In this document: piece after piece, positions 662-21,889 of the stretch
How positions within the stretch are numbered: position 1 is the first letter of the stretch
Layout of the letters: each line of letters begins with the position of its first letter
Assembly: GCA_963707215.1 (NCBI GenBank)
Contig: CAVPPB010000003.1
Location: 1,376,001 to 1,440,000 of the forward strand
Origin: an uncultured Chloroflexia bacterium
Lineage (GTDB): Bacteria > Chloroflexota > Limnocylindria > Limnocylindrales > CSP1-4
DNA: 64,000 bases
Direction of reading: 5' to 3'
Program-made: the position numbers and the translations under genes
Notes under the pieces: generated by a model
What the model was told of the DNA's origin: nothing
The model's database searches: none
Seen by the model: the letters and a program-made list of their open reading frames with translations, nothing else

Positions 662-1861
662 ATGACGATCACGCCCCGGACCATCCTCCTGGTCGGCCTG
701 TGGGCGGTCGCGGTCGGCATCGCCGTGGTCGACCTGCTCGTCGGGCTCTTCGCCCGACGCGGCGGCGTGAGCTTCGAGGGCACCGCCTGGACGCCGGCGC
801 TGCAGGCCGGTTTCGCGACCGTCGGGGTGCTGATCCTGGTCAACCGTCCGAGGAACGTGATCGGCGGTCTCTGCCTGGCGATCGGGCTCGTGCTCGCCGC
901 CAGCGCCGCCATGGCGGCGTACGCGACGCTCGACGACGTCCGCGGGGGGCCGGCGACCGCGGCGGGCTCGACGGCCGCCATGCTGTCCACGGCGCTCCGG
1001 AGTCTCGCGATCGTGCTGTACGTGCCGCTCCTCGCTCGCTTCCCCTCCGGCCATCTCCTGTCGCGGCGCTGGGCGGTCGCCGACGCACTGGTCCTCTTCT
1101 TCGTCGGCACGGTCGCGGTCGAGACCCTGAGACCGCATCGCGTCGAGCTCGAGTGGGTGCTGGCGTTCGAGAACCCGATCGGGATCCTGGGGCTCCCGGT
1201 GGCAGGGGAGCCCGCCCTGCAGGCGGCCGGGGGCTTCGCGGTGGCCGCGGCCATCCTCGTCACCGGGGCCGCGATCGTGCTCCGCTACCGGCGAGGAGGT
1301 CCGACCGAGCGAGCCCAGATCCGCTGGGTCGTCGCCGCGTATCTCGTGGCCATCGGCGCCATCGGGGCCGCCCTCGTGGCGCCGCGCCCGGTGTCCGACC
1401 TCGCCTGGCTCGTGCTCACGCTCGTGCCCGGGCTGATCCCCATCGCCATCGGGGTCGCCGTGCTGCGATACCGGCTGTACGAGATCGACCGGCTCATCAG
1501 CCGGACGATCGGCTGGGCAATCGTGACGGGAGTGCTGGTCGGCGCCTTCGTCTTCCTGGTGCTCGGGTTGACCTCGGTCGTCGAGCCCCTGTTCGGTGGT
1601 GGCAACACCCTCGCGATCGCCGGCTCCACGTTGGTCGTCGCGGCCCTCTTCAACCCGGTCCGGACGCGGGTCCAGCGAGCGGTCGACCGACGGTTCGACC
1701 GGGGCCGCTATGACGGCGAGCGGCTCCTCGCTGCCTTCACCGAGCGGCTGCGCGACGAGGTCGACCTCACCACGATCTCCGCTGATGTCCTCGCCACCGT
1801 CGATGCCGCGGTCCGACCGAGCTCTGCCGGTCTCTGGCTGCGGGGGAGCGGCCCCCGCTAG
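662..1861 (+). CDS. multi-pass membrane sensor-like protein, paralog 1 (C-terminal partial GAF)
   Basis: Many hydrophobic segments; conserved tail LRYRLYEIDRLISRT...VDRRFDRGRYDGERLLAAFTERLRDEVDL...VRPSSAGLWLR, which resembles the TM-to-GAF linker of GAF/PP2C and HK sensors. Confidence 0.8.
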   Translation: MTITPRTILLVGLWAVAVGIAVVDLLVGLFARRGGVSFEGTAWTPALQAGFATVGVLILVNRPRNVIGGLCLAIGLVLAASAAMAAYATLDDVRGGPATAAGSTAAMLSTALRSLAIVLYVPLLARFPSGHLLSRRWAVADALVLFFVGTVAVETLRPHRVELEWVLAFENPIGILGLPVAGEPALQAAGGFAVAAAILVTGAAIVLRYRRGGPTERAQIRWVVAAYLVAIGAIGAALVAPRPVSDLAWLVLTLVPGLIPIAIGVAVLRYRLYEIDRLISRTIGWAIVTGVLVGAFVFLVLGLTSVVEPLFGGGNTLAIAGSTLVVAALFNPVRTRVQRAVDRRFDRGRYDGERLLAAFTERLRDEVDLTTISADVLATVDAAVRPSSAGLWLRGSGPR

Positions 1862-1883
1862 GCGCCACCCAGCGGCGAGGCCG

Positions 1884-4820
1884 CTACCAGGTCTCGAGCA
1901 TCCAGATCCCCGGCTCCAGCTCGCCGGGCATCCCGCCAACGTCGGCGAACGCGGTGACCGCCTCCCGCAGGTGCTCCAGCGCCTCGTCGTCCCGTCCGGC
2001 CGACCGCAGCATGTCGGCCAGGTTGTTCTCGACGGCCGCCTCGAGGTGGCGCTCGCCGGCGCGTCGTGCCGAGAACGACGCGCTCTCCGCAAGGGTCAAC
2101 GCCAGGTCGATGTCGCCCTGGTCGGCGACGACGAGCGCCAGCGCGTTGGCGGCCGCGATGGAGGCGACCGGATCGGGCAGCGTCGCCGCCGCAGCGAGGC
2201 TCCGCTCCAGGAGGGCCCGCGCGTCCTCGAGATCGCCGCGATCCCGGGCCAGCAGCCCGAGGATCCGATCGGCCTCGGCCTCCGCGGCGATGTCGCCCGT
2301 CGCCAGGGCACGGGCTTCGAGGGCCAGCGCCGCGGCCGACTCCGGCCGCCCGGACCGAGCCGCCGCGACCGCTTGATCCGCGAGGAGGTCGGATCGCCGC
2401 GGCCCCGTCCCCTCGCCGGCCTCGTCGAGAGCGGCCACGGCGGCGGCCAGGTGTCGCCCGGCGCGACCCGGATCGCCGCGTCGGAGATGGACCTGGCCCA
2501 GGCGATGCTCGATGGTGGCCAACCGGTCCGCGGGCGCCGACGCAGCCGCCGTCTCGAGAGTCGAGATGGCCTTCGGATAGTCCCCGGTCCGCATGGCGAC
2601 CTCCCCGATGGCCAGGTGCAGGCCGAGCACGTCTGGGTCGCCCAGGGCAAGGGCCGCCTCGAGATAGGCGAGGGCCTCCCGGTTGGCGAAGACCGCGCGG
2701 GCAAGATCGCCGGCCTCGCGGTAGGCGGCCGCAGCCTCGGGTCCGCGGCCCGCGGCCTGCTCATGGGTCGCGATACGGGCCAGGCGCCCGAGCTGGTCGA
2801 GGTCTCGACCGGCCGGCCCACGGAGCGCCTCGGCCGCCCGGCGATGGAGCAGGCGCCGCCTGACCACGCTCGTCGTCTCGTAGGCGACGTCGCGGAGGCG
2901 GGCATGGACGAAGTCGAACACCGGACCGCCGCTGCCAGTGGACTCGTTGACGATCCCCCGGCGCAGGAGCTCCTCGATGGCCATCACCGTCTCGTCGTCC
3001 GATCGACCACTCACGGCGCGGGCGGCCTCGGCTCCGAACGACCGCCCGATGACGGCCGCGGCCGCGACGACCTGCGTGGCCACGTCGCTGACCCCGGCCA
3101 GGCGTCCCTGGAGCAGTGCGCGGATGCCGGCCGGCATCGCGCCAGCGGGACGATCCGGCACGGCCAGGGCCTCGACGACGTAGAGCGGCAGCCCTTCGGC
3201 CTCGTCGACGAGGGCATCGAGGATGGCAGGGGAGGGCATCGGCCGGCCGGTCGTCACGATCGCATCGACGAGTTCGCGGACGTGGGCCTGCGCCAGCCGA
3301 TCGAGCCGGACGACGGCACCGGGCATCGCGTCCGCGGTCGCCACGAGTGGCTGGGCTCGCTCGTCGAGGTCCTCGCGGCGCCACGAGAGCAGCAGGGCGA
3401 TCGGGTGCGTCTCAAGTCGGCGGGCGAGGTAGGCGAGCGCCTCGAGCGTCGAGTCGTCGGCCCACTGGAGATCGTCGAGGCGGACGAGGACGGGCCGGGC
3501 CGGGCCGTCCGGGCCGTCCGGGCTGGCGATCGCACCGAGGCCCGCGGCGATCGCCTCGAGCAGTCGGAGCCGAGCTGCCGGACCCGATGCGGGACCGGGA
3601 CCGGTCGCCGGACCGGTCCGCTCGAGCTCCGGCACGAGCGTGGCGAGGAAGCCTCGATCCCGCTCGGAAAGCCGGGCAAGAGCGTCGGGACCATCAGCCA
3701 GGGCGAGCACCGACCGGAGCAGCCCGGCGATCGGGGCGAGCGCGATGCCCGCCTCGCCGGCATAGCAGCGCGCCGCGACCACGGGGTGATCCATCGTCGC
3801 CGCCCGCTCGGTGACGGCATCTGCGAGCCGCGTCTTGCCGATCCCCGCCTCGCCCTCGATGACCGCGAGCCGGCCGCTGCCTTCCCCGAGGGCGAGCGCG
3901 GCCGACACCCGCTCCAGCTCGTCAGCACGACCGATGAGCGGCGCGATCGAGGGGCGGCCCGGAGCCGCCGCGGCTGGCGCGGACGGCGATGTGGCGGCCT
4001 CGCCCGCGGCGGATCCTGGAGGCGACGCCGTCGCCAGCTCCCCCGCCAGGATCGCCTCGTACAGCTCCGTCGTCTCGGGAAGCGGTCCGACGCCCAGCTC
4101 ACGGTCAAGGATCGCGGCCGCGTCGCGGTACTGCCGGACCGCCGCGGCCGTCTCGCCGGAGCGTGCGTAGGCCTCCATGAGGGCTCGGTGGGCCGGCTCG
4201 TGCAGCGGGTCGAGCCCGAACCACCGCCGACCAGCCACGATCGCGCCGTCCCAGCCGCCGGCCGCGAGGCGCTCCCGAACGAGCCGCTCGAGCGCCCCGG
4301 CGAGCTCACGCTGATGGGCCTCGCGCTCGATCTCGATCCACTCATCCCACGCCTCGCTGTCGCGGAGCGAGAAGCCCTCCATGAGCCCCCCACGGTCGAG
4401 GGCCAGGGCAGCTTCGAGCGCCGCCTGGCAGTCCCCGCAGGCACGATCCGGCTCGTGGCCGTGACCCCGGGCCTGGGTCACCGCGTCGCGGAACCGGGCG
4501 ACGTCGAGCTCGATCGATCCTGGGTCGAGGGCGACCGACGTCCGGTCGATGGTCAGGCCGGTCCCATCGAGGGCCGAGTTGAGCACCGAGAGCGTCCGGC
4601 GCAGCGCGCCTCGGGCCTCCTGGTCGCCCGAATCCGGCCAGAGGAGCGCGCCCAGGGACTCGCGGGACGCGGGCCGGCCGGTCAGGGCCAGGTAGGCCAG
4701 CAGGGCGATGGCCTTCCGCGTGTCGACGGCCAGCGGTGCACCGCCGACGCGGATGTCGACCGGGCCCAGCAGGCGGATCGCGATCGTGCGCGTCGGGGGG
4801 GCCGGCGACCTCGGTGGCAT
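1884..4820 (-). CDS. SARP/AfsR-like transcriptional regulator (wHTH-BTAD, AAA ATPase, TPR)
   Basis: IRLLGPVDI...RKAIALLAYLAL...LLWPD...LRRTLSVL; BTAD motif LDPLHEPAHRALMEAYARSG; Walker A GEAGIGKT; Walker B DDLQWAD; FVHARLRD; start set at MPPRSP (ATG 4820). Confidence 0.9.
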   Translation of the reverse strand: MPPRSPAPPTRTIAIRLLGPVDIRVGGAPLAVDTRKAIALLAYLALTGRPASRESLGALLWPDSGDQEARGALRRTLSVLNSALDGTGLTIDRTSVALDPGSIELDVARFRDAVTQARGHGHEPDRACGDCQAALEAALALDRGGLMEGFSLRDSEAWDEWIEIEREAHQRELAGALERLVRERLAAGGWDGAIVAGRRWFGLDPLHEPAHRALMEAYARSGETAAAVRQYRDAAAILDRELGVGPLPETTELYEAILAGELATASPPGSAAGEAATSPSAPAAAAPGRPSIAPLIGRADELERVSAALALGEGSGRLAVIEGEAGIGKTRLADAVTERAATMDHPVVAARCYAGEAGIALAPIAGLLRSVLALADGPDALARLSERDRGFLATLVPELERTGPATGPGPASGPAARLRLLEAIAAGLGAIASPDGPDGPARPVLVRLDDLQWADDSTLEALAYLARRLETHPIALLLSWRREDLDERAQPLVATADAMPGAVVRLDRLAQAHVRELVDAIVTTGRPMPSPAILDALVDEAEGLPLYVVEALAVPDRPAGAMPAGIRALLQGRLAGVSDVATQVVAAAAVIGRSFGAEAARAVSGRSDDETVMAIEELLRRGIVNESTGSGGPVFDFVHARLRDVAYETTSVVRRRLLHRRAAEALRGPAGRDLDQLGRLARIATHEQAAGRGPEAAAAYREAGDLARAVFANREALAYLEAALALGDPDVLGLHLAIGEVAMRTGDYPKAISTLETAAASAPADRLATIEHRLGQVHLRRGDPGRAGRHLAAAVAALDEAGEGTGPRRSDLLADQAVAAARSGRPESAAALALEARALATGDIAAEAEADRILGLLARDRGDLEDARALLERSLAAAATLPDPVASIAAANALALVVADQGDIDLALTLAESASFSARRAGERHLEAAVENNLADMLRSAGRDDEALEHLREAVTAFADVGGMPGELEPGIWMLETW

Positions 4821-4852
4821 CCACGCAACGATACCGCCCTTGCCGTGCGGTT

Positions 4853-4885
4853 CGTAACGTTTCCCGGACCCCCGTCCGCCAGGGT
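4853..4885 (+). promoter_or_regulatory. putative SARP-type box (CGTAACG-N4-CCGGACC) plus -10-like CAGGGT
   Basis: Same motif recurs at 6388, 6938, 10825 and 11496; lies between the divergent regulator and paralog 2. Confidence 0.55.
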
Positions 4886-5021
4886 GGCTGTGCCTGGCCG
4901 GGGGGCCATGGTGGGGCCCGGCGAACGGAGGTGTCGTGGGGTCCGCAAGCACACGAGTCGACCGGAGGGTTGCCGTACCGTCGTACGGTGGGGGGGCCGT
5001 ACCGAGCCCGGCGTGCGTCCC

Positions 5022-6323
5022 ATGAGCCGACCCAGCGACCCGCACCCTGCGCCGCCTCGACACACCAGCCCAGCACCTGTCGCTGCTCCGAGCATCCCGA
5101 CGCGACGACGCCCGACGACCTGCATCGCGGTCGCGCTCCTCGCCCTGGCGCTCGGCATGATCGCCTTCCTGGCGGCCTCCTCGCTCGTGCTGCCGGGCGC
5201 GGATCGACTCCCGGGCCGACCCGAGGGGATCGTGGACGTCCTGTGGATCGCGATCACGCTGGGAGCGTTCGTGTCGCTGCCGACGATGGGGGCGATCCTT
5301 GCCATCCTCCGGCCACGCAACCCGATCGGCTGGCTCCTGCTCGGCAGCGGCGTCGCGATCATCCTGGGTACGTCCGGGCCGGAGTACGTCGACCGGAGCC
5401 TTCTCCTCGGGGCCGAGCTGCCCGGCGACCGCATCGTGGACTGGCTCTCGGCACGGTCCGAAGGCCTCGGGTTCATGCTCGTGGCCGTCTGGATCCCGTT
5501 GGTCTTCCCGGACGGGCGGCTGCCCGGCCCCAGGTGGCGACTCGTGGCCATCGTTGCGGCGCTCGCGATGGTGACGAGCGTCGTTGCCGGCGCCCTGACG
5601 GTGCACGGGGACGGCCAGTGGGACCCCGCATTCCCCAACCCGCTGGCGGCCGAAGGGTGGCTGGCTGACCTCGCCGTCGTCCTGGTGGATGTCGGGAACC
5701 TGGTCCTCCTGGTCTGTATCCCGCTTGCAGCGGCATCGGTGATCGTCCGCTTCCGGCGGTCCCGCGGCGCCGAGCGGGAACAGATGAAGTGGTTCCTGGC
5801 GGCGGCGTCGGTCCTCGCGGGCGCATTCCTCCTGATGGCCGGGGTCCAGCAGGACTGGACCTACATCCTCACCCTGGCCAGCTTCTCGCTCCTCCCCATC
5901 GCCATCGGCATCGCCGTCCTGCGGTACCGCCTGTACGAGATCGACCGGCTCATCAGCAAGTCCATCGGCTGGGCCATCGTGACGGGGTTGTTGGTCGGGG
6001 CCTTCGCCCTCCTGGTCCTCGGACTCCAGACCGTGCTCGAGCCCCTCACCGGGGGCAACACCCTGGCGATCGCCGGCTCGACCCTCGTGGTGGCGGCCCT
6101 GTTCCAGCCCCTCCGGACCCGGGTCCAGCGGGCCGTCGACCGGCGGTTCGACCGGAGCCGCTACGACGGGGAGCGGCTGCTCGCCGCCTACTCCGAGCGC
6201 CTGCGCGACGAAGTGGACCTCTCGACGATCAGTGCCGACGTCCTCGCCACCGTCGATGCCGCGGTCCGGCCGAGCGCTGCCGGCCTCTGGCTGCGGGAGC
6301 GACCCGGGGGCGGGCGGCCCTGA
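5022..6323 (+). CDS. multi-pass membrane sensor-like protein, paralog 2
   Basis: MSRPSDPH start; RPRNPIGWLL, FPDGRLPGPRWR, EREQMKWF and the shared C-terminal tail. Confidence 0.8.
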   Translation: MSRPSDPHPAPPRHTSPAPVAAPSIPTRRRPTTCIAVALLALALGMIAFLAASSLVLPGADRLPGRPEGIVDVLWIAITLGAFVSLPTMGAILAILRPRNPIGWLLLGSGVAIILGTSGPEYVDRSLLLGAELPGDRIVDWLSARSEGLGFMLVAVWIPLVFPDGRLPGPRWRLVAIVAALAMVTSVVAGALTVHGDGQWDPAFPNPLAAEGWLADLAVVLVDVGNLVLLVCIPLAAASVIVRFRRSRGAEREQMKWFLAAASVLAGAFLLMAGVQQDWTYILTLASFSLLPIAIGIAVLRYRLYEIDRLISKSIGWAIVTGLLVGAFALLVLGLQTVLEPLTGGNTLAIAGSTLVVAALFQPLRTRVQRAVDRRFDRSRYDGERLLAAYSERLRDEVDLSTISADVLATVDAAVRPSAAGLWLRERPGGGRP

Positions 6324-6387
6324 GCTCCGCTCGTCTCGACGGGATCCATGCAGGCATCGTCACGGTCTGCGAGACCCGCCGCGAACT

Positions 6388-6420
6388 CGTAACGCTTCCC
6401 CGACGCTCCCGGACCACGAT
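6388..6420 (+). promoter_or_regulatory. putative SARP-type box plus -10-like CACGAT
   Basis: CGTAACG CTTC CCCGACG, 9 nt, CACGAT. Confidence 0.55.
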
Positions 6421-6471
6421 GTCGGCAGCCGGCCGCGGGGGGCGGCCGGCATCAGCACCGAGGAGCAGGCC

Positions 6472-6942
6472 ATGAGCTGGTCGATGGAGCACATCCGCGA
6501 GGCACCCGTGGCGCCAGGCGACGTGTTCGCCGCCTACACGGACCCGTCCACCTGGAGCGCCTGGGGGCACAACACGCGCTCAGCTCGGCTCAAGGGTCCG
6601 TTCCGCGAAGGAGCCGTCGTCCGCGTCGAGGCCGGCTACCGCCGCACCTGGCCGGTCCTCGTCCGGATGGTCGTGCCGGGGTGCACGGTCGTGTGCGAGG
6701 TCCGCCCGCCCGGGGTCACGATCGTCTCGACCTACGACGTGCGGCCGACAGAGGAGGGCGCCCGCCTTCGGCACGTCATCACCATCTCCGGCCGGCTCGA
6801 GCTCGCCTACCGACCACTGCGACCGCTGTACACGCGGCTGCTCGCGAAGGAGACGAGGCGCCTCGCCGAACACGTCACCGGGACCGGTGCCCGCGCCGAG
6901 GAGACGCGGGAGACGGCCGCGGACGGCCCACGACTGTCGTAA
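6472..6942 (+). CDS. SRPBCC/polyketide cyclase-like protein
   Basis: GAGGAG RBS; APGDVFAAYTDPSTWSAWG...LKGPFREG pattern typical of the SRPBCC N-terminus. Confidence 0.75.
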   Translation: MSWSMEHIREAPVAPGDVFAAYTDPSTWSAWGHNTRSARLKGPFREGAVVRVEAGYRRTWPVLVRMVVPGCTVVCEVRPPGVTIVSTYDVRPTEEGARLRHVITISGRLELAYRPLRPLYTRLLAKETRRLAEHVTGTGARAEETRETAADGPRLS

Positions 6943-6970
6943 CGTTCCGCGAACACTCCACGCCGAGGAT
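6938..6970 (+). promoter_or_regulatory. putative SARP-type box plus -10-like GAGGAT
   Basis: CGTAACG TTCC GCGAACA, 9 nt, GAGGAT; overlaps the TAA stop of the SRPBCC gene. Confidence 0.5.
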
Positions 6971-7072
6971 GCGTCCCGTGAACGGTCGATATCGAAGCCG
7001 TGCTGCAGCGCCGGCCAAGGCGTCCACGTACCTTCCGTTGACGGGTGGCCCGACCATCGGGTGCCTGGTCGC

Positions 7073-7156
7073 ATGAGCGCCGACGTCCTCGCGACCGTCG
7101 ATACCGCGGCCCGACCGACCGCTCCCGGCCCCTGGCTGCTGGGGTCCGAGCCATGA
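7073..7156 (+). pseudogene. remnant 3' end of a further membrane-sensor paralog
   Basis: Translates MSADVLATVDTAARPTAPGPWLLGSEP*, a degenerate copy of the tail SADVLATVDAAVRPTAAGIWLR; ATGA overlap with paralog 3. Confidence 0.65.
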
Positions 7157-8373
7157 CGGCTGATCGGGGTCGTCTCCGCGCCGTCTCCGCGATCCTCATC
7201 ATCGCCTCGCTCGCGGGGTCGCTGGCGTTCACTATCGTCCTCGACGCGGTCGTGCTCGCCGGGTCGACGTCCTTCGACACGCCCATCCTCTCCCTGTTGC
7301 TCACGGCGATCGCGCTGGCGTTCTCGATCGTCGGGGCCGCGGTCGAGTGGCGGCGGCCCGGTCACGCAATCGGCCGCCTCCTGCTGCTCTCGGGACCGTT
7401 GTTCGCGTTCCTGGCGATGGGCTGGACGTTGGGAGGCTCTCTCGCTGCCCCCATCGACCCTGCCGTACATGCCCTGTTCGACTGGAGCGTGACCGTGCTC
7501 TCCTACCCGGGGATGGCAGTGATCGCAGGCTGGCTTCCGCTCCTGTTCCCCTCAGGAACGCTCCCAGGTCCGCGCTGGCGAGCTCCGGCGGCCGCGCTGG
7601 TCTTCGTGTCGTCGGTGAGCCTCCTCGCGCTTGCGACGCGGCCCGGGCCCCTAGTCGAGGATGGCCGAGCAAACCCGCTCGGCGTCGAAGCCTGGCCTCC
7701 CGCCCTCCAGCTGCTCGTCGACTCGCTGCTGCTTCAGCTCGTGCTGTTGTTCGTGCTCGCGGTCGTCGGACTCGCCGTCCGCTACCGGCGCGGGGACGAG
7801 GTCGCGCGCCACCAGATCCGCTGGCTGCTCGCGGCCGTGGGAACCGTGGCCGTGGGGTTCGTCGGTGCCCTCGTCGAGGGCCTCGTCCGCACGGACGAGG
7901 GGGTCTTCGTATCGATCATCGTGGCGTTCGTTGGCGTCCTGTTCATGCCCATCGCCATCGGCATCGCCGTCCTGCGGTACCGGCTGTACGAGATCGACCG
8001 GCTCATCAGCCGGACGATCGGCTGGGCGATCGTGACCGGGCTGCTGGTCGGGGCGTTCGCCCTCCTCGTGCTCGGGCTCCAGGCCGTGGTCGAGCCGATC
8101 ACCGGCGGGAACACGCTGGCGATCGCCGGGTCCACCCTCGTCGTGGCCGCCCTCTTCAACCCGGTTCGGACGAGGGTCCAGCGGGCCGTCGATCGACGGT
8201 TCGACCGCTCCCGGTACGACGGGGAGCGGCTCCTCGCCGCCTTCGGGGAGCGCCTTCGCGACGAGGTCGACCTGACCGCCATCAGGGCCGATGTCCTCGC
8301 CACCGTCGATGCCGCGGTCCGACCAAGCGCTGCCGGCCTCTGGCTGCGGGAGCGACCGGGGGGCCGGGCGTGA
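7153..8373 (+). CDS. multi-pass membrane sensor-like protein, paralog 3
   Basis: RRPGHAIGRLL, FPSGTLPGPRWR, RHQIRWLL and the shared tail. Confidence 0.8.
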   Translation: MTADRGRLRAVSAILIIASLAGSLAFTIVLDAVVLAGSTSFDTPILSLLLTAIALAFSIVGAAVEWRRPGHAIGRLLLLSGPLFAFLAMGWTLGGSLAAPIDPAVHALFDWSVTVLSYPGMAVIAGWLPLLFPSGTLPGPRWRAPAAALVFVSSVSLLALATRPGPLVEDGRANPLGVEAWPPALQLLVDSLLLQLVLLFVLAVVGLAVRYRRGDEVARHQIRWLLAAVGTVAVGFVGALVEGLVRTDEGVFVSIIVAFVGVLFMPIAIGIAVLRYRLYEIDRLISRTIGWAIVTGLLVGAFALLVLGLQAVVEPITGGNTLAIAGSTLVVAALFNPVRTRVQRAVDRRFDRSRYDGERLLAAFGERLRDEVDLTAIRADVLATVDAAVRPSAAGLWLRERPGGRA

Positions 8374-9554
8374 GGGTGCCGGGCGTGAACGACCGCGCGG
8401 CACTCCGGATCGCGTCGACCGCGATCGTGCTGCTGCTGCTGGCCGGCACGGCCATCCTTGCCGTCATCTGGCCGCCCGTCCGGCAGCCCACCTGGGGGTT
8501 CACCGGCTTCTCTGGCCTGCTGGCAGGAGCCGTGGGCCTCATGGGAGCGGTCATCGTGTACCGTCGGCCGGGCAACCGCGTGGGTTGGGTCCTGCTCCTC
8601 GTCGGCCTCATGAGCGCGATCCAGTTCGTCGTGGACCTGACCCCACTCCTGGTCATCCACCTGGGCGGCGCGGGCACGCCGGCCGAGACCTGGACGAGCT
8701 GGCTCCCGAACGCCATCTGGGTCCCGTCGGTCACCCTGATCGGCTACCTGTTGCTGATCTACCCTGACGGGCGCCCGCCTGACGGACGCTGGTCGGCCCT
8801 CGGTCCGCTGCTGCTCGTGGTCGCGATCCTGACGCTGGTGGCGATCCTGGTGACCCCCGGCGACCTGCGGAACTACCCGGGCGTCGCCAACCCGACGGGC
8901 CTGCCCGGTCTCCCCGGGGCCCTCGTGGCCATCGTCGACCCCCTGTACCTGGGGACGCTCGTGGCCGCAGCGCTGTCCCTGGTCGTCCGCTGGCGCCAGG
9001 CCCCGCCGGTCGTCCGGGCCCAGCTGAAGTGGCTCGCCCTTGCCGGGGTCCCGTTCGCGATCGCCACCAGCCTGTCGGTCGTCTCCCGGGAGGCCCAACT
9101 CATGGCGATCCTCTCCGGCGGGCTGATGCCGGTAGCCATCGCCATGGCGATCCTGCGCGACCGCCTGTACGAGATCGACCGCATCATCAGCCGGTCGATC
9201 GGCTGGGCGATCGTCACCGGGTTGCTCATCGCGACGTTCGCCGTGTTGATCCTTGGCCTCCAGGCGGTGCTCGAGCCCCTGACCGGAGGCAACACCCTGG
9301 CGATCGCCGCCTCGACCCTGATCGTCGCTGCCCTCTTCGACCCGGTCCGGACCCGGGTCCAGCGGGCGGTCGACCGCCGCTTCGACCGTTCCCGGTACGA
9401 CGGCGAGCGCCTCCTGGCCGCCTTCGGGGAGCGGCTGCGCGACGAGGTGGACCTCACGACGATCTCCGCCGATGTCCTCGCCACCGTCGATGCCGCGGTC
9501 CGACCGACCGCTGCCGGCATCTGGCTGCGGGAGCGATCGGGGGGCGGAGGGTGA
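8370..9554 (+). CDS. multi-pass membrane sensor-like protein, paralog 4
   Basis: GTGA overlap with paralog 3 (alternative GTG at 8385); RRPGNRVGWVLL, YPDGRPPDGRW, RAQLKWL and the shared tail. Confidence 0.8.
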   Translation: MRVPGVNDRAALRIASTAIVLLLLAGTAILAVIWPPVRQPTWGFTGFSGLLAGAVGLMGAVIVYRRPGNRVGWVLLLVGLMSAIQFVVDLTPLLVIHLGGAGTPAETWTSWLPNAIWVPSVTLIGYLLLIYPDGRPPDGRWSALGPLLLVVAILTLVAILVTPGDLRNYPGVANPTGLPGLPGALVAIVDPLYLGTLVAAALSLVVRWRQAPPVVRAQLKWLALAGVPFAIATSLSVVSREAQLMAILSGGLMPVAIAMAILRDRLYEIDRIISRSIGWAIVTGLLIATFAVLILGLQAVLEPLTGGNTLAIAASTLIVAALFDPVRTRVQRAVDRRFDRSRYDGERLLAAFGERLRDEVDLTTISADVLATVDAAVRPTAAGIWLRERSGGGG

Positions 9555-10818
9555 GGGGGCAGATGCGGCAGCGGACCGTCAGGGACAGCCGAGCGGCCCG
9601 CGGTTCGTCGACTGCCGCCGCGGAGCCATCGATCGGCTGGCCCGGACGACTGCTGCTGATCGCTCTGCTGGCTGGCGGCACGTTCATCGGTGTCGCCTGG
9701 GCATTCGACCCGTTCGCGCTCCTCTTCTGGGCATCGTACGCCTCGACCGCAGCCCTCCTCATCGTTCGGCGACCCCGGAACGTCATCGGCTGGCTGTTGC
9801 TCGCGATCGCGTTCGGGTTCATCGGAACCACGTCGCGACCCGAGATCGACCTGGCCGCGCTGGAGCAGGGCGTCGGGGCGATCGGCGACGAGCTATGGAT
9901 GTGGGTCGGAAGCTGGGTCGGCGCCGCGACCTTCATCGGCTTCTTCACGTTGATGCTCGTGTTCCCGAGCGGTCGGCTTCCTGGCGGGCGCTGGCGCCGA
10001 CCGTCGATGGCGCTGATCACGGTCGGGAGCCTCGTCGTCGTCCTGGCCGCCTTCGCGCCGACCGTCACGTTCAGTCCCGATGGCGGCAGCGCCGAGATCG
10101 TCGCTCCCAACCCGGTCGCCATCCTTCCCGACCTGCCGATCTGGTCGATCGTCCCGAACAGTGGTGCCGTGACGATCGTTCCGATCCTGGTCCTGCTGCC
10201 GATCGGCGTCGTCACGTTGGCCATGCGCTACCGACGGTCAAGCGGCGCCTTGAAGCTCCAGCTGCGCTGGCTGGTCGCGGCCGTTGCCTTCATGGTCGGG
10301 GCGGTCGTGGCAGGCCTGACGATGCTGGCCATCGCCGGCGAGGACGCATGGTACGCATGGGTCCCGGCGATCATCGCCTACCCGACCGTACCCATCGCCA
10401 TCGGCATCGCGGTCCTCCGGTACCGGCTGTACGAGATCGACCGGCTCATCAGCCGGACGATCGGCTGGGCGATCGTGACGGGACTGCTGGTGGGAGCCTT
10501 CGCCCTCCTGGTGCTGGGGCTCCAGGCCGTCGTCGAGCCGCTCACCGGCGGCAACACCCTGGCCATCGCCGGCTCGACCCTCGTCGTGGCGGCCCTCTTC
10601 AACCCGGTCCGCACCCGGGTCCAGCGGGCGGTCGACCGCCGCTTCGACCGTTCCCGGTACGACGGCGAGCGCCTCCTGGCCGCCTTCGGGGAGCGGCTGC
10701 GCGACGAGGTGGACCTCACGACGATCTCCGCCGACGTCCTCGCCACCGTCGATGCCGCGGTCCGACCGACCGCTGCCGGCATCTGGCTGCGGGAGCGATC
10801 GGGGGGCGGAGGGTGAGG
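9340..10818 (+). repeat. ~215-bp near-identical direct repeat: 3' ends of paralogs 4 (about 9340-9556) and 5 (about 10602-10818)
   Basis: Direct comparison shows only isolated substitutions and the identity runs through the stop (…gagcgatcggggggcggagggtgagg). Confidence 0.85.
9563..10816 (+). CDS. multi-pass membrane sensor-like protein, paralog 5
   Basis: ATG after GAGGGG (alternative GTG at 9551); RRPRNVIGWLL, FPSGRLPGGRWR, KLQLRWL and the shared tail. Confidence 0.8.
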   Translation: MRQRTVRDSRAARGSSTAAAEPSIGWPGRLLLIALLAGGTFIGVAWAFDPFALLFWASYASTAALLIVRRPRNVIGWLLLAIAFGFIGTTSRPEIDLAALEQGVGAIGDELWMWVGSWVGAATFIGFFTLMLVFPSGRLPGGRWRRPSMALITVGSLVVVLAAFAPTVTFSPDGGSAEIVAPNPVAILPDLPIWSIVPNSGAVTIVPILVLLPIGVVTLAMRYRRSSGALKLQLRWLVAAVAFMVGAVVAGLTMLAIAGEDAWYAWVPAIIAYPTVPIAIGIAVLRYRLYEIDRLISRTIGWAIVTGLLVGAFALLVLGLQAVVEPLTGGNTLAIAGSTLVVAALFNPVRTRVQRAVDRRFDRSRYDGERLLAAFGERLRDEVDLTTISADVLATVDAAVRPTAAGIWLRERSGGGG

Positions 10819-10824
10819 ACGCTT

Positions 10825-10857
10825 CGTAACGGGTCCCGGACGGTCGACTGGTGGACT
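10825..10857 (+). promoter_or_regulatory. putative SARP-type box plus -10-like TGGACT
   Basis: CGTAACG GGTC CCGGACG, 9 nt, TGGACT; upstream of the secreted protein gene. Confidence 0.5.
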
Positions 10858-10900
10858 GCGTCCAGGCAGACCGCCGGAGGGACCACCACAGGAGGCCACC

Positions 10901-11314
10901 ATGCGCCGCGTCCTCGCTCGCTCGATCCTCATCGGGTCGATCGCCGCAACCACCCTGGCAGGGACCGCCCTGGGCCACGAGTGCTTCATCTACAGCCGGT
11001 CGGACACCGGCGACCTCGCCGCGGGCAGCCACTCGAAGGTCTGGCTGACCGTCGGCTCCACGGCCGACATCTTCCTGCTCGTCGAGGAGGAGCTCCAGCT
11101 GCCGCCGCTCTCACCCTCGCAGCTCGATTGGGCGGTCGACGCCGGGAAGGCGGCGGGCCTGCCGAACCAGTTCACGATCTTCATCGGCAAGAAGACGATC
11201 GCCGAGGGCACCCCGGCGATGGAGAAGCATGCCGCCGACGGCAGGGGCGTCGATCACGCCTTCGATTGGCTGCCGGTCGTCGTCGACATCTACTTCCAGG
11301 CGCTCGCGCACTGA
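10901..11314 (+). CDS. secreted hypothetical protein
   Basis: AGGAGG RBS; signal peptide MRRVLARSILIGSIAATTLAGTALG followed by HECF. Confidence 0.8.
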   Translation: MRRVLARSILIGSIAATTLAGTALGHECFIYSRSDTGDLAAGSHSKVWLTVGSTADIFLLVEEELQLPPLSPSQLDWAVDAGKAAGLPNQFTIFIGKKTIAEGTPAMEKHAADGRGVDHAFDWLPVVVDIYFQALAH

Positions 11315-11495
11315 CCGAGCCTGACCCCCGGGCCCGGGCGGGCCGGCTGCCCAGCCGAGCGTCCCGTCCGTCCGGGCCCACGCCACCTCCAGCGTCCGCC
11401 GGATCGTCCTTCCGGCGGACGCGTCGCGTCCACGCGGGCCCGATGTCGACCACCACCACCGACCGCGTGACGGATCGTCCCGATGACCCTTGGAC

Positions 11496-11513
11496 CGTAA
11501 CGCTTCCCGGACG
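11496..11513 (+). promoter_or_regulatory. fifth copy of the CGTAACG-N4-CCGGACG motif
   Basis: CGTAACGCTTCCCGGACG directly before the RBS of the PP2C gene. Confidence 0.5.
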
Positions 11514-11534
11514 CACAGGGAGGAACCTCCGGCC

Positions 11535-13247
11535 ATGACGTTCATCCAGTCGCTGCGCCGCACGGTCGGACTCGGCGGTCGATCCGCCCCGGAGCCCGAC
11601 GCCTCCAGCGAGCCCGACGAGGGAGCCTCGGCGGCCGAGGCCCAGGTCGATGGCGTCCCGGCGGAGCCGGAGGCACCGGCGGGGTCCGCCGGGATCGGCC
11701 CGGTCGAGATCGCCCCCGACGACCCGCTGCTCGCGCTGCTCCAGTCCACCGACGGCGTGATCGACGTCGACCGGGTCACGATCGACTCGCCCGCCCTGGA
11801 CGCTCTCCGCGCGCAGGGCATCGCCGTCATCGTCCCGCTCGTCGCCCAGGGCGAGCTCGTCGGGGCGCTGTACCTGGGTGAGCGCCTGTCGGAGCAGGAC
11901 TACTCGACCGACGACCGTCGACTGCTCGCCTCGCTCGCCGCCCGCACAGCCCCGGCGATCCGCGTCGCCCAGCTGGTCCGCGAGCAGGCCACCGAGGTCG
12001 CCGCGCGCGAGCGCATCGAGCAGGAGCTCCAGGTCGCGACCCTCATCCAGCAGCAGTTCCTGCCCCGGAGCCTGCCGGAGCTCCCCGACTGGCAGGTCGC
12101 GGCGTACTACGGCCCGGCGCGCGCCGTCGGCGGCGACTTCTACGACTTCATCGAGCTGCCCGACGGGCGCATCGGCGTCGTCGTCGGCGACGTGACCGAC
12201 AAGGGCGTCCCGGCCGCCCTGGTCATGGCTCGGACCCACTCGGTCCTGCGGGCCGAGGCGCCGCGCCTCATCGAGCCGGGAGCGGTGCTCGCGCGGGCGA
12301 ACGACATCCTCTGCGAGGAGATGCCGTCGAACATGTTCGTCACCTGCCTCTACGGCGTCCTCGAGCCGACCACGGGTCGCTTCGTCTTCGCCAACGCCGG
12401 GCACAACCTTCCGTACGTCCGGTCCGCGGGCACGGTCGACGAGCTGCGGGCGACCGGGATGCCGCTCGGCCTGCTGCCGGGGATGGCGTACGAGGAGGCC
12501 GAGGGAACGATCGAGGGCGGCCAGGGCCTCCTCCTCTACTCGGACGGGTTCGTGGAGGCCCACTCGCCGACCGGCGAGATGTACGGCTTCCCGCGGCTCC
12601 GGGACGCCTACGGCGCCTTCGACGGCGACACTGGCAGCGAGCTGGTGGATCGGCTGCTCGACGACCTCCACGGCTTCACCGGCGGCGGCTGGGAGCAGGA
12701 GGACGACCTGACGCTGGTCGCCCTGCGGCGATCGCGCGGCACGGGCTTCGAGGCCCTGGCCGACGAGACCGATGCGGCCGACGCGGCCGACCCTGTGGCC
12801 ACCGCGGCGAGCGTCCGCGCCCTCCTCGACCTGGAGGTCCCCGGCGCCCTCGGCAACGAGCGGATCGCCATGGACCGGGTCGCCGAGGCGGTCGCTCCCC
12901 TCGGGCTTCCCGCGGACCGCCTCGAGCGACTCAAGACGGCGGTCTCCGAGGCGGCGATGAACGCCATCGAGCACGGCAGCCAGGGCCGGCCGGAGGTCCC
13001 TATCCGGGTCCACGTGTCGGCGACCGACGCTGCGCTCCGGGTCCGGGTCGCCGACATGGGCCTGGGCGGCGACATCCCCCTGGGCTCGGCTGAGGTCCCG
13101 GACCTGGAGGCGAAGCTGGCCGGCGAGCAGAAGCCGCGCGGCTGGGGCCTCTTCCTGATCGAAGCGATGGTCGACGAGATGGCCGTCGAGCAGACCGACG
13201 AGGGCCAGGCGGTCGTCCTGACCCTCCACCTGAAGGGAGCGTCCTGA
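11535..13247 (+). CDS. RsbU/SpoIIE-type PP2C phosphatase with N-terminal partial GAF and C-terminal RsbW-like HATPase_c
   Basis: VPLVAQGELVGALYLG (GAF); VGGDFYDF, VVGDVTDKGVPAAL, NAGHN, LLYSDG, EDDLT (PP2C); EAAMNAIEHG, DMG, RGWGLFLI (anti-sigma kinase). Confidence 0.9.
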   Translation: MTFIQSLRRTVGLGGRSAPEPDASSEPDEGASAAEAQVDGVPAEPEAPAGSAGIGPVEIAPDDPLLALLQSTDGVIDVDRVTIDSPALDALRAQGIAVIVPLVAQGELVGALYLGERLSEQDYSTDDRRLLASLAARTAPAIRVAQLVREQATEVAARERIEQELQVATLIQQQFLPRSLPELPDWQVAAYYGPARAVGGDFYDFIELPDGRIGVVVGDVTDKGVPAALVMARTHSVLRAEAPRLIEPGAVLARANDILCEEMPSNMFVTCLYGVLEPTTGRFVFANAGHNLPYVRSAGTVDELRATGMPLGLLPGMAYEEAEGTIEGGQGLLLYSDGFVEAHSPTGEMYGFPRLRDAYGAFDGDTGSELVDRLLDDLHGFTGGGWEQEDDLTLVALRRSRGTGFEALADETDAADAADPVATAASVRALLDLEVPGALGNERIAMDRVAEAVAPLGLPADRLERLKTAVSEAAMNAIEHGSQGRPEVPIRVHVSATDAALRVRVADMGLGGDIPLGSAEVPDLEAKLAGEQKPRGWGLFLIEAMVDEMAVEQTDEGQAVVLTLHLKGAS

Positions 13248-13594
13248 TGGAGGGCGTCATGACGGCACTGACGAGCCGGGTCGAAGCCGGCCCCGAGACG
13301 GGACGGATCGTCCTCGCGGGACGGCTCGACCGGGAGGGCGACGCTGTCCTGGCCTCGGCCTACGCAGAGGCGACGGCGGCCGGCGCCGCGGAGCTGGAGA
13401 TCGACTTCGGCGACGTCGCCTACATCAACAGCACGGGCATCGCGCTCGTCGTCCGGCTGCTGGCCGAGGCCCGCCGCGACGGGCGCCCGGTCCGCGCCAC
13501 GGGCCTGTCCGACCACTACCGGGAGATCTTCCGGATCACCCGGCTGTCCGACTTCATGACGATCGTGGACGACGAGCCAGGAGGTGAGCGATGA
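13247..13594 (+). CDS. STAS-domain anti-sigma factor antagonist
   Basis: IDFGDVAYINSTGIALVV...IFRITRL. Confidence 0.9.
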   Translation: MEGVMTALTSRVEAGPETGRIVLAGRLDREGDAVLASAYAEATAAGAAELEIDFGDVAYINSTGIALVVRLLAEARRDGRPVRATGLSDHYREIFRITRLSDFMTIVDDEPGGER

Positions 13595-13935
13595 CGGCGA
13601 CGACGGTGCAGGTCGAGTCGCGGGGCGACACGGCGATCCTCCGCATCGGCGGCGATGTGACCGCCGCCAGCGACGGAGCGTTCAGCGAAGCGTACGCGAC
13701 CGCGACCGACGGCGGAGCCCGGGCCCTGGTCCTCGACTTCTCCGGCATGGAGTACATGAACAGCGGCGGGATCGGGCTGCTCGTGACGATGCTCGTCCGG
13801 ACCCAGCGGGCCGGCCAGCGACTCCTCGCCGCCGGTCTGTCCGAGCACTACTGCCAGATCCTCTCGCTCACCCGCCTCGACGAGGCGATCGCGATCCACG
13901 ACACGACCGACGCCGCGCTGGCGGCGACGGCGTAG
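13591..13935 (+). CDS. STAS-domain anti-sigma factor antagonist
   Basis: LDFSGMEYMNSGGIGLLV...ILSLTRL; ATGA overlap. Confidence 0.9.
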   Translation: MTATTVQVESRGDTAILRIGGDVTAASDGAFSEAYATATDGGARALVLDFSGMEYMNSGGIGLLVTMLVRTQRAGQRLLAAGLSEHYCQILSLTRLDEAIAIHDTTDAALAATA

Positions 13936-13945
13936 GAGGCCAGCC

Positions 13946-14782
13946 ATGACGACGCAGGACGCGACCCCCGACGGCCCCGGCGCGACCGTCGATCCTGTTC
14001 CCGAGTCCAGCCCCGCCGGATCCGCGGCGACCCCCGAGCGCGCGACGATCGCGACGCCGGCCCCTGCTCGCGATCCGGGCACGACCTGGGCCAAGCCGGT
14101 CGACCGCCTGACGATGGGCGAGGTCCCCGCGTCGGCGATCAACCTGAACGTCTCCGGCAAGCGGCTCTCCGGGCCCCTCCAGGGGTTCGGTCAGCTGTGG
14201 CAGAAGACCTATCGGATCCGCTTCGAAGGCGCCGCGCCGACGCCGCAGGAGGTGATCGCCACCTGGAAGCGCGAATTCGGCTCGTTCTGGCCGTCGAACG
14301 CCCACTTCTACGCGCCGTTCGCCGAGATCGCCCCCGGCGAGGTCGGGCTCATCAACCAGGACGTCGCCGGCGGTCAGACCCTCTCGACCGGGGTCATGGT
14401 CATCTACGCCGACGACGAGTCCTTCACCTTCATGACCCCGGAAGGCCACGTCTTCGCGGCCTGGATCACCTTCAGCGCCGACCGCGACGCCGAAGGCGCG
14501 ACGAGTGCCCAGGTCCAGGCGCTCGTCCGGGCGAGCGACCCCATCTTCGAGACCCTGCTGATGACCGGCGGTCACGGCCAGGAGAACCGGCACTGGGAGA
14601 CGACGCTGTCGAACCTCGCCGCCCGCTTCGGCGCCACCGGGACGCCGACGACCGAGGCGGTCTGCGTCGATCGGAAGCGCCAGTGGCGCCATGTCGGCAA
14701 CATCCGCCACAACTCGGCCATCCGGTCCGGGATCTGGACGATGACGCACCCACGGAGCATGTTCCGGCGCCCGAAGGCGTGA
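13946..14782 (+). CDS. conserved hypothetical protein co-operonic with the partner-switching genes
   Basis: AGGAGG RBS; globular composition (GPLQGFGQLWQKTY, TFMTPEGHVFAAWITFS). Confidence 0.75.
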   Translation: MTTQDATPDGPGATVDPVPESSPAGSAATPERATIATPAPARDPGTTWAKPVDRLTMGEVPASAINLNVSGKRLSGPLQGFGQLWQKTYRIRFEGAAPTPQEVIATWKREFGSFWPSNAHFYAPFAEIAPGEVGLINQDVAGGQTLSTGVMVIYADDESFTFMTPEGHVFAAWITFSADRDAEGATSAQVQALVRASDPIFETLLMTGGHGQENRHWETTLSNLAARFGATGTPTTEAVCVDRKRQWRHVGNIRHNSAIRSGIWTMTHPRSMFRRPKA

Positions 14783-16265: not shown

Positions 16266-16337
16266 GGATGCGGGCGCCGGCGGGTGAGCCGTCCGCGGCC
16301 GCGCGCCCCGTCGCCGGCTGCGTACCGTCGTCGGCCG

Positions 16338-21802: not shown

Positions 21803-21889
21803 GCGTGGTCCTCGTGGAGCGGATCGGTGGCGATCATCGGACGCTGGGCCCGACAAGCGTAGCGGACGGGTGCCGGGCCGGGACGGCGT

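Follow-up and report, generated by a model that had tools for sequence, protein, structure and literature searches.

A GAF domain apparently divided between membrane sensor paralogs and a single phosphatase/kinase in Chloroflexota

How can five membrane proteins that look like sensors, and that end without an output domain, pass on what they sense? The question is raised by a 64,000-nucleotide stretch of DNA from an uncultured Chloroflexia bacterium (assembly GCA_963707215.1, contig CAVPPB010000003.1, positions 1,376,001 to 1,440,000; hereafter the window, meaning the whole stretch), in which five such paralogs, p1 to p5, precede a gene for a phosphatase fused to a kinase. The usual view of bacterial sensors is of one chain, or of whole domains that dock on one another. 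Here a single fold, the GAF domain, appears to be shared between chains. The answer that we propose is that each sensor would supply the piece of this domain that the phosphatase lacks.

Five sensor paralogs and one phosphatase/kinase

At 72% G+C, long spurious open reading frames (ORFs) are common, and gene calls in the window were therefore verified by alignment. The five sensor genes, with the segments that correspond to helix a1 and strand b1 of a GAF domain, are as follows.

662..1861, plus strand: sensor paralog p1, 399 amino acids (aa); polytopic membrane protein; conserved tail from about 1436; GAF a1-b1 segment 1754-1843
5022..6323, plus strand: sensor paralog p2, 433 aa; GAF a1-b1 segment 6207-6296
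7153..8373, plus strand: sensor paralog p3, 406 aa; alternative GTG start at 7045; GAF a1-b1 segment 8260-8349
8385..9554, plus strand: sensor paralog p4, 389 aa; start 11 nucleotides (nt) past the p3 stop; GAF a1-b1 segment 9441-9530
9563..10816, plus strand: sensor paralog p5, 417 aa; start 8 nt past the p4 stop; conserved tail 10388-10813; GAF a1-b1 segment 10703-10792

Each paralog has 8-10 hydrophobic segments. The five are only 24-31% identical over their N-terminal ~260-290 residues but 79-94% identical over the last ~140 aa. Their C-termini read ..VDL(T/S)xI(S/R)ADVLATVDAAVRPxxAG(L/I)WLR, followed by 5-8 residues and a stop; a longer form of this end motif is ..RLRDEVDL..I.ADVLATVDAAVRP..AG(L/I)WLR. 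A Pfam scan of p1-p5 found no output domain and no STAS domain, and the tails alone gave no GAF match. Its sole match was HisKA_7TM (PF16927) on p2, and NCBIfam added only PrsK (TIGR02916) on p3, both below threshold (19.5 bits against a cut-off of 28.6, and 19.9 bits against 300). Across the whole assembly (3.26 Mb in 5 contigs, 85% complete), tails occur exactly five times, namely in p1-p5.

The gene downstream of the array (11535-13247, plus strand) has its own GGGAGG ribosome-binding site and ATG start, and two STAS genes follow it.

11535..11702, plus strand: phosphatase leader; conserved basic N-terminal peptide MTFIQSLRRTVGL, then a low-complexity Ala/Pro/Glu-rich linker
11703..12029, plus strand: half-GAF, from b2 through a5 and on into the coiled-coil linker; matched to GAF_3 (Pfam) over positions 49-127 of 129
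12159..12731, plus strand: SpoIIE/PP2C (PPM) phosphatase domain; PF07228 match
12867..13223, plus strand: HATPase_c_2 (RsbW/SpoIIAB-type kinase) domain, fused to the phosphatase; gene end at 13247
13247..13594, plus strand: STAS protein 1, anti-sigma antagonist-like; Ser in ..YINSTGI..
13591..13935, plus strand: STAS protein 2; Ser in ..YMNSGGI..

The conserved part of the phosphatase begins VEIAPDDPLL after the 56-aa leader. No segment of the protein resembles a transmembrane (TM) helix, and its single hydrophobic window is the GAF hairpin. The SpoIIE/PP2C match covers profile positions 1-191 of 192 (PF07228, E 2.7e-52, 178 bits against a gathering cut-off of 25), and the predicted phosphatase carries the motifs GGDFYD, GDVTDKG, YSDG and EDD, which we take to be its metal ligands. 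The kinase domain matches HATPase_c_2 (PF13581, E 1.7e-22, 80.3 bits against 27.4) and falls below the cut-offs of the RsbW/SpoIIAB equivalogs TIGR01925, NF003144 and TIGR01924 (51.6, 49.7 and 42.4 bits against 135, 145 and 155). By these profiles it is of the RsbW/SpoIIAB kind and not an equivalog of the anti-sigma F or B factors. With two STAS genes beside it, the phosphatase/kinase has the predicted composition of a partner-switching module; the Ser of NSTG and NSGG in the two STAS proteins is presumably the phosphorylatable position of the antagonist motif.

An original prediction, made from the letters of the window, had described five paralogs with variable multi-TM N-termini, a shared tail (about 130 aa there, about 140 aa here) and no output domain, and had placed beside them a phosphatase without a TM region, with a low-complexity leader and an RsbU-RsbW output. 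The alignment and the Pfam scan agree with its account of the sensors. Hydrophobicity and sequence agree with its account of the phosphatase, and the PP2C/HATPase_c_2 fusion followed by two STAS genes (Pfam) fits the output that it named.

Two parts of one GAF domain

The GAF of the phosphatase is incomplete. Its Pfam matches are all partial, covering positions 49-127 of 129 in GAF_3 (PF13492), 57-133 of 133 in GAF (PF01590) and 91-135 of 136 in GAF_2 (PF13185); the GAF_3 match takes in only the C-terminal 60% of the profile. Against solved GAF structures, a profile of the half-GAF likewise aligns to the C-terminal part only (DevS 99-151 of 153; Ta0848 56-135 of 149). By Pfam, neither the phosphatase nor the tails hold a complete GAF, from a1-b1 through a5, on one chain.

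Where, then, is the missing part? A search for longer proteins that share the tail recovered genuine single-chain forms, in which tail and GAF are joined to various outputs.

P0018: single chain with TM region, tail, GAF and SpoIIE
P0025, P0029: single chain with PDZ and PP2C
P0026: single chain with GAF and histidine kinase
P0030: single chain with GAF and cyclase
P0031, P0033: single chain with GAF and sigma-54 activator

When placed on these chains by BLASTP, the tail and the window phosphatase fall one after the other. On P0018 the p1 tail covers 267-461 and the phosphatase 475-813; on P0030 the two matches meet at residue 385; on P0031 the tail runs to 506 and the phosphatase begins to match at 515. 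Pfam envelopes mark whole GAF domains at 354-493 in P0030, 479-609 in P0031 and 540-675 in P0025. From the envelopes and the BLASTP placement it follows that the last ~30 residues of the tail match the first ~30 GAF positions, and that the phosphatase gives the remainder. The PrsK profile (TIGR02916), although a weak and sub-threshold match to both proteins (19.9 and 17.7 bits against 300), shows the same order, with p3 at profile positions 122-346 and the phosphatase at 370-461. A second search returned 736 proteins at E<=1e-10; the best 120 of these cover 92-100% of the tail-plus-GAF query region in one chain, and 4 of the 120 also carry HATPase_c_2.

To locate the cut we used L111:841-2562, a naturally fused relative of 574 aa, modelled with AlphaFold2 from an alignment of 104 rows at a mean predicted local distance difference test score (pLDDT) of 82.5. 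The model comprises a juxtamembrane helix (162-180), a1 (184-199), b1 (203-209, ..VSVWVR), a loop (210-220) that is the lowest-confidence part of the GAF domain, and b2 (221-225). Past b2 come two more helices and a hairpin, and a5 continues as a long linker helix into the PP2C domain. With an exhaustive structural aligner, solved GAFs align to model residues ~162-320. Among them are PDE2A 3IBJ (Z 12.2, root-mean-square deviation (rmsd) 3.4, 143 residues aligned), 3K2N (Z 11.1, rmsd 3.2, 147 aligned, almost the entire 177-residue chain) and several phytochrome GAFs (Z 11-12.5). Since the solved domains span the split point, the cut lies inside the fold, in the b1-b2 loop of the model. Foldseek on the whole model gave only phosphatase-domain matches among the matches listed, so that the GAF part was aligned by the exhaustive aligner only; with that aligner the phosphatase domains of SiaA, Rv1364c, RssB and SpoIIE match with Z 22-27.

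Judged from these alignments and the model, the end of the tail and the N-terminus of the phosphatase correspond to adjacent, non-overlapping parts of one whole GAF, a statement of correspondence and not of assembly. That the halves look complementary had been the core of the original prediction, and it holds on the fused P0018, P0030 and P0031, on the GAF envelopes and on the L111 model; the full-length single-chain homologs whose search it had called for exist, P0018 with its TM region, tail, GAF and SpoIIE among them. Complex prediction for the half-GAF with a cytoplasmic tail scored 0.65, 0.67 and 0.65, and 0.56 with one unrelated control partner, which we count neither way.

Three other database proteins (P0002, P0005 and P0016) are apparent fusions, either of two sensors or of a sensor and a phosphatase, that contain frame-shifted stretches and translated intergenic DNA. 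Their sequences mark them as gene-calling read-throughs in high-GC contigs, not natural fusions. Annotation is thereby corrected on two counts, for the sensors, which databases list as hypothetical proteins, and for several database "fusions", which prove to be frame-shifted read-throughs.

Conservation of the split

We collected 80 loci with relatives of the phosphatase, each with 10-kb flanks (best-segment identity to the query 53-88%). Limnocylindrales and uncultured Chloroflexia are the labels of most of them, all metagenome-assembled genomes (MAGs); some others bear the label Actinomycetota or Ktedonobacteraceae. Tail genes are present in 75 of the 80, with 340 high-scoring segment pairs, all on the phosphatase strand. 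Full-length tails account for 256 of these, and 64 loci hold two or more. Almost all stop soon past ..WLR, within 15 codons in 237 of 256 and within 40 codons in 254. In 69 of the 80 loci, less than 1 kb separates the half-GAF from the end of a tail upstream. On the other side of the cut, the conserved part of every split phosphatase begins exactly at b2.

The five loci without tails fall into two kinds: two (L076, L084) have less than 700 bp of upstream sequence, and three (L073, L077, L081) are labelled Ktedonobacteraceae or Ktedonobacterales. By these comparisons the GAF split is old and conserved. Its recurrence in 75 of 80 loci, together with the count in the bacterium's own genome, where a search of the whole assembly finds a single half-GAF, shows that it is due neither to chance nor to misassembly.

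Could the two parts be joined after all, as one polypeptide? Frameshifting or read-through was rejected: of the 256 full-length tails, not one is read in an open frame together with the half-GAF, and in 67 paired loci a median of 225 bp separates the conserved V(D/E)I..DPL from the stop codon of the closest full-length tail upstream. Ligation by a split intein was likewise rejected: only 5-8 residues follow WLR, and the 56-aa leader, its sequence set against known motifs, has no intein-like end.

The N-terminal peptide of the leader is itself conserved. In most of the 80 loci the split phosphatases begin with a basic peptide of this type (MTFIQSLRR, MTELTRPIRRLLGR, MATLLQLLQLRR), after which comes a variable low-complexity linker. 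It is similar to MxxFQVSSR, the N-terminus of the fused anchor family, which the AlphaFold2 model of the fused relative renders as a strand (residues 9-18; mean pLDDT 81 over 11-20). Given this resemblance, the split enzyme looks like the fused protein minus everything from the anchor through b1. We also considered the leader as a twin-arginine signal and rejected it, since a hydrophobic stretch does not follow.

Selection and gene conversion in the tails

Within the window, the ratio of nonsynonymous to synonymous substitution (dN/dS) in the tails is ~0.1-0.3 at a synonymous divergence (dS) of 0.3-0.5; the N-terminal parts are saturated. The P and the W of the strand motif P-x5-W-x-R are invariant in 72 tails, and the equivalent residues P201 and W207 hardly vary among 104 fused proteins.

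These data bear on the possibility of decay or artefact, in which the split genes would be truncated pseudogene copies of a sensor phosphatase or the product of assembly or frameshift errors. Such errors do occur around these loci, as the read-throughs P0002, P0005 and P0016 attest. Yet 75 of 80 loci, which come from different species-level genomes, show the identical split, and the tails are under purifying selection. Moreover, p3, p4 and p5 are tightly packed, with gaps of 8-11 nt, and have separate start codons (GA-rich Shine-Dalgarno-like stretches precede p4 and p5), just as the phosphatase has a ribosome-binding site and start codon of its own. We give decay or artefact next to no credence.

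Part of the likeness among the window's tails has another source. The cytoplasmic tails of p4 and p5 (9441-9554 and 10703-10816) are 99% identical in DNA, against 79% for their TM hairpins, which indicates, on sequence grounds, a short and recent gene-conversion tract. Compared across loci, the N-terminal part has its nearest relative within its own genome in 7 of 176 genes, the tail in 50 of 176. Sensor types are therefore old and shared between genomes, and tails are partly homogenised within genomes. Co-adaptation of a1-b1 within genomes was not counted as a sign that the sensors share a partner, since it is modest in size (0.54 against 0.41) and is confounded in the window by gene conversion. 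For the same two reasons, we do not use the uniformity of the tails as evidence for a common partner.

A DNA motif shared by sensors and phosphatase

Sensor genes and phosphatase are also linked by an 18-base motif, CGTAACGnTTCCCGGACG. It occurs four times in the window, against 0.09 expected, and the gene divergent from p2 encodes a SARP-like regulator.

4853..4870, plus strand: motif copy 1, between the divergently oriented SARP-like gene and p2
6388..6405, plus strand: motif copy 2, 65 nt past the p2 stop
10825..10842, plus strand: motif copy 3, 9 nt past the p5 stop
11496..11513, plus strand: motif copy 4, 21 nt before the start codon of the phosphatase
1884..4820, minus strand: SARP-like regulator (BTAD, AAA_16, TPR), between p1 and p2 and divergent from p2

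Searched with up to 2 mismatches, the whole 3.26-Mb genome contains only these four sites, all in the cluster; the reversed pattern, used as control, gives 1 hit. In 54 related loci the motif lies ~20-40 nt upstream of the phosphatase start. The 80 loci together hold 108 copies on the plus strand and 2 on the minus strand. Of these, 70 stand just before the phosphatase, and most others stand at the head of a sensor array or just past a tail stop. The motif probably serves sensors and phosphatase alike as promoter or operator. A SARP-like (SARP/AfsR-like) homolog is found in 66 of the 80 loci, on the strand opposite to the phosphatase in 62, and this conserved neighbour is a candidate binder of CGTAACGnTTCCCGGACG.

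Co-occurrence across genomes

Do tails and half-GAF occur in the same genomes? We searched two samples, with E-value thresholds that were chosen after seeing that the values fell in two groups.

Class sample, 120 other genomes: strong tail in 26 (E<=1e-30); split half-GAF in 23 (E<=1e-29); half-GAF with tails 23/23; tail without half-GAF in G019, G028 and G037
Phylum sample, 300 other genomes: strong tail in 19 (E<=1e-25); split half-GAF in 16 (E<=1e-29); half-GAF with tails 16/16; tail without half-GAF in G177, G206 and G323

The samples overlap in three genomes (G008, G041, G045), and three of the 23 genomes of the class sample (G091, G106 and G112) are flagged as unpublished. A split half-GAF without tail genes was found in none of the 23 genomes of the class sample and none of the 16 of the phylum sample. 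Tail-only genes commonly lacking a partner would have told against the original prediction; they lack one only rarely, in 3 of 26 class genomes and 3 of 19 phylum genomes. Soil and freshwater Chloroflexota widely carry the split system, as do some MAGs labelled Actinomycetota.

Linkage is not universal. Four genomes labelled Ktedonobacter (G124, G126, G127 and G128, which hold loci L073, L076, L077 and L081; G127 is flagged as unpublished) have 6-24 tail matches each, dispersed over many contigs. All five strong matches examined there (L098-L101, L103) stop 6-23 residues past WLR. The same genomes have one or two split phosphatases, unlinked to the tails, together with fused anchor/tail/GAF/PP2C paralogs. 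Weaker matches include fused forms: G129, which holds L084 and is labelled Anaerolineales, has three weak tail matches, of which the one examined (L102) is a fused longer form and not tail-only, and a weaker match of the class sample (L092) is a fused HisKA_3 kinase, the others of that kind being membrane proteins with a complete mini-GAF, described below.

Completion in trans and its alternatives

We observe complementary boundaries, fused single-chain relatives, conservation of the split and genome-level co-occurrence. The most economical reading of these is that the sensors complete the GAF of the phosphatase in trans, and we hold it to be probable. It is favoured, among other points, because CGTAACGnTTCCCGGACG precedes both sensor arrays and phosphatase.

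Several observations weigh against this reading. First, strong tail-only genes occur without a detected split half-GAF in six sampled genomes (G019, G028, G037, G177, G206 and G323), and in G019 and G037 at least 5.8 kb downstream of the tail contains no phosphatase. Second, five membrane proteins from the same class (L090, L091, L093, L095, L096) have the tail and a complete mini-GAF and then stop, with no output domain, so that output-less members of the family need no complementation. Third, a1-b1 is the least conserved part of the tail, with 54% identity within genomes and 41% between them (47 genomes), and it is therefore not obvious that all paralogs fit one partner. Fourth, the near-identity of the five window tails, as judged from their DNA, partly reflects gene conversion; a1-b1 identity there is 90%, with a synonymous difference of just 0.19. 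Finally, the conserved N-terminal peptide of the split phosphatase could be the real docking element.

The first two of these observations fit an alternative in which there is no direct contact at all. The sensors would then be membrane proteins that act on their own and lack an output (transporter-like proteins, scaffolds, or sensors with other partners), sharing no more than operon and regulation with a soluble partner-switching module. The dispersed tail genes of the Ktedonobacter-labelled genomes, unlinked to the phosphatase, also suit this explanation. It does not sit well with the absence of any split half-GAF without tails in both samples, with the exact complementarity of the boundaries, or with a cis motif that is specific to the cluster and common to sensors and phosphatase. 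The orphan tails come, moreover, mostly from fragmented assemblies: G323 has ~90 contigs and the others 130-570 (130-210 for G019, G028 and G037), and the tail in G028 lies 0.8 kb from a contig end. G206 has a weaker GAF match at 2e-26. We consider the absence of contact improbable.

Another alternative is a different contact. Sensors and phosphatase would cooperate without rebuilding a GAF, the truncated GAF being a stable, degenerate dimerisation module and coupling taking place elsewhere, for example through the basic N-terminal peptide of the phosphatase on the RYRLYEID loop, the TM hairpin or the juxtamembrane helix of the sensor. This would suit a peptide that is common to split phosphatases in most of the 80 loci and that resembles a modelled strand of the fused anchor. 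Conservation within genomes is also higher for the TM hairpin (0.65) and the juxtamembrane helix (0.69) than for a1-b1 (0.54), and synteny and co-occurrence are compatible with any type of interaction. Left unexplained is why 256 of 256 full-length tails keep a1 and b1 with the invariant Trp and end a few codons from the b1-b2 loop, and why the conserved part of each split phosphatase starts precisely at b2. In the GAF fold, strand b1 lies inside the sheet and helix a1 packs against a5; without a1-b1 the domain probably would not fold. A contact of this other kind strikes us as unlikely, if not remotely so.

Proposed mechanism

Completion in trans remains the reading that we prefer, and the mechanism it suggests is the following. 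An ancestral single chain, consisting of membrane domain, GAF, PP2C phosphatase and RsbW-type kinase, would have been cut inside the GAF, in the b1-b2 loop. Its N-terminal fragment, comprising the membrane sensor, a conserved TM hairpin, the juxtamembrane helix and GAF a1 and b1, would now exist as five paralogs that differ in their sensor parts. Its C-terminal fragment, running from GAF b2-a5 through the coiled-coil linker and PP2C to the RsbW-like kinase, would be one cytoplasmic protein. The a1-b1 tail of a sensor would insert into the incomplete GAF of the phosphatase and complete its sheet, tethering the enzyme to the membrane. A conformational change in the sensor could then pass through a1 and the a5/coiled-coil linker to a switch in the PP2C dimer, as in RsbU-type phosphatases, and phosphatase and fused kinase would together set the phosphorylation state of the two STAS proteins. 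That several interchangeable receptors could rebuild a GAF in trans had been suggested by the original prediction. For us, too, the binding, the interchangeability and the sign of regulation are inferred, on the strength of the boundaries, the conservation and the co-occurrence.

Such a route has precedent: N-terminal sensor domains (GAF, PAS, receiver) are proposed to control PPM phosphatases via a crossing helical linker, and RsbU is activated by a partner binding its N-terminal domain and linker (PMC12143880).

We lean, somewhat less firmly than towards completion itself, to a fuller version of the proposal: one signalling domain naturally divided, to which exchangeable plug-in receptors donate a1 and b1, and in so doing compete for, tether and regulate a single PP2C/RsbW output. 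There would be five exchangeable receptors here, with up to 24 dispersed tail matches in other genomes. If true, this would explain how one phosphatase/kinase switch serves many membrane inputs without duplication of the domain, and would offer a natural, evolutionarily tuned split-domain pair usable as a protein-complementation tool. Many-to-one integration by fragment complementation would be a mode not described for bacterial one-component, two-component or partner-switching systems. Full-text literature searches, with subscription-only papers outside their scope, found no description of a split, partial or trans-completed GAF.

Relation to known systems

The nearest relatives are uncharacterised single-chain proteins of Ktedonobacteria and other Chloroflexota that combine a membrane anchor, GAF and SpoIIE-PP2C, with or without HATPase_c_2. 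NCBI names some of them 'GAF domain-containing SpoIIE family protein phosphatase' (for example P0035, P0044, P0110; with kinase, P0125 and P0144). They share with the window proteins the TM hairpin, the juxtamembrane RRF(D/N)R..YD helix, a1-b1, the remaining GAF, the coiled-coil linker and PP2C, and are ~50% identical to the window phosphatase over some 350 residues. What sets the window proteins apart is the break in the b1-b2 loop, where these relatives continue as one polypeptide, and the multiplication of the N-terminal piece into five sensor variants.

The nearest solved enzyme is Mycobacterium tuberculosis Rv1364c (RsbU and RsbW domains, PDB 3KE6), likewise a PPM phosphatase fused to an RsbW-type kinase. 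It differs in having a PAS sensor and a fused STAS domain (PMC12143880) and in being soluble, with neither a split domain nor membrane partners. Against the L111 model, 3KE6 is the top Foldseek match (32% identity) and second by VIA-align (Z 24.8, rmsd 2.2, 210 aligned).

In the Bacillus subtilis stressosome, RsbRA and its paralogs, which have variable sensing parts and a conserved coupling part, converge via RsbT on one PP2C, RsbU, that dephosphorylates a STAS protein. The likeness to the proposed system lies in logic only, with several sensor paralogs acting on one PP2C. Coupling in the stressosome is by a complete STAS domain in a large complex, with the kinase RsbT as messenger, whereas we propose completion of a domain. 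A Pfam scan found no STAS domain in the five sensors and no RsbT-like gene among the ORFs that it covered.

PrsK, the histidine kinase of the XrtA/PEP-CTERM system (TIGR02916), has a polytopic membrane domain followed by GAF, and sensor and phosphatase align one after the other along its profile. Its output differs, being a histidine kinase, and at the scores given above the resemblance is distant only. In donor-strand complementation of chaperone-usher pili, and in engineered split proteins, a missing strand of a sheet comes from another polypeptide. Those cases are structural or engineered; what we propose is a natural division of a signalling domain, with alternative receptors on one side and an enzyme on the other, of which the full-text searches gave no example.

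Neighbouring genes

The genes downstream of the phosphatase are retained across the 80 loci, with homologs of STAS1 and of STAS2 in 77 each. Two further genes continue the series.

13946..14782, plus strand: conserved 278-aa protein; no Pfam or NCBIfam family; same downstream position in 74/80 loci
14825..16351, plus strand: flavin adenine dinucleotide (FAD)-dependent amine-oxidase-like oxidoreductase; downstream in 69/80 loci

Both may be targets or effectors of the switch. Among the ORFs scanned from 1 to ~25.6 kb of the window there is no sigma factor.

Two genes interrupt the cluster, and a large gene lies beyond it. The 137-aa gene, like the SARP-like regulator, had no place in the original prediction.

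6475..6942, plus strand: SRPBCC (Polyketide_cyc2) gene, inside the sensor array
10901..11314, plus strand: 137-aa gene between p5 and the phosphatase; no family; hydrophobic N-terminus that reads like a signal peptide
18224..21856, minus strand: large zinc-ribbon / adenylate-cyclase / AAA_16 / TPR (STAND-like) gene, a few kb downstream of the cluster

The 137-aa gene and the SRPBCC gene sit just downstream of motif copies 3 and 2, respectively. With homologs in no more than 2 and 3 related loci, respectively, out of 80, the two genes look like local insertions into the array.

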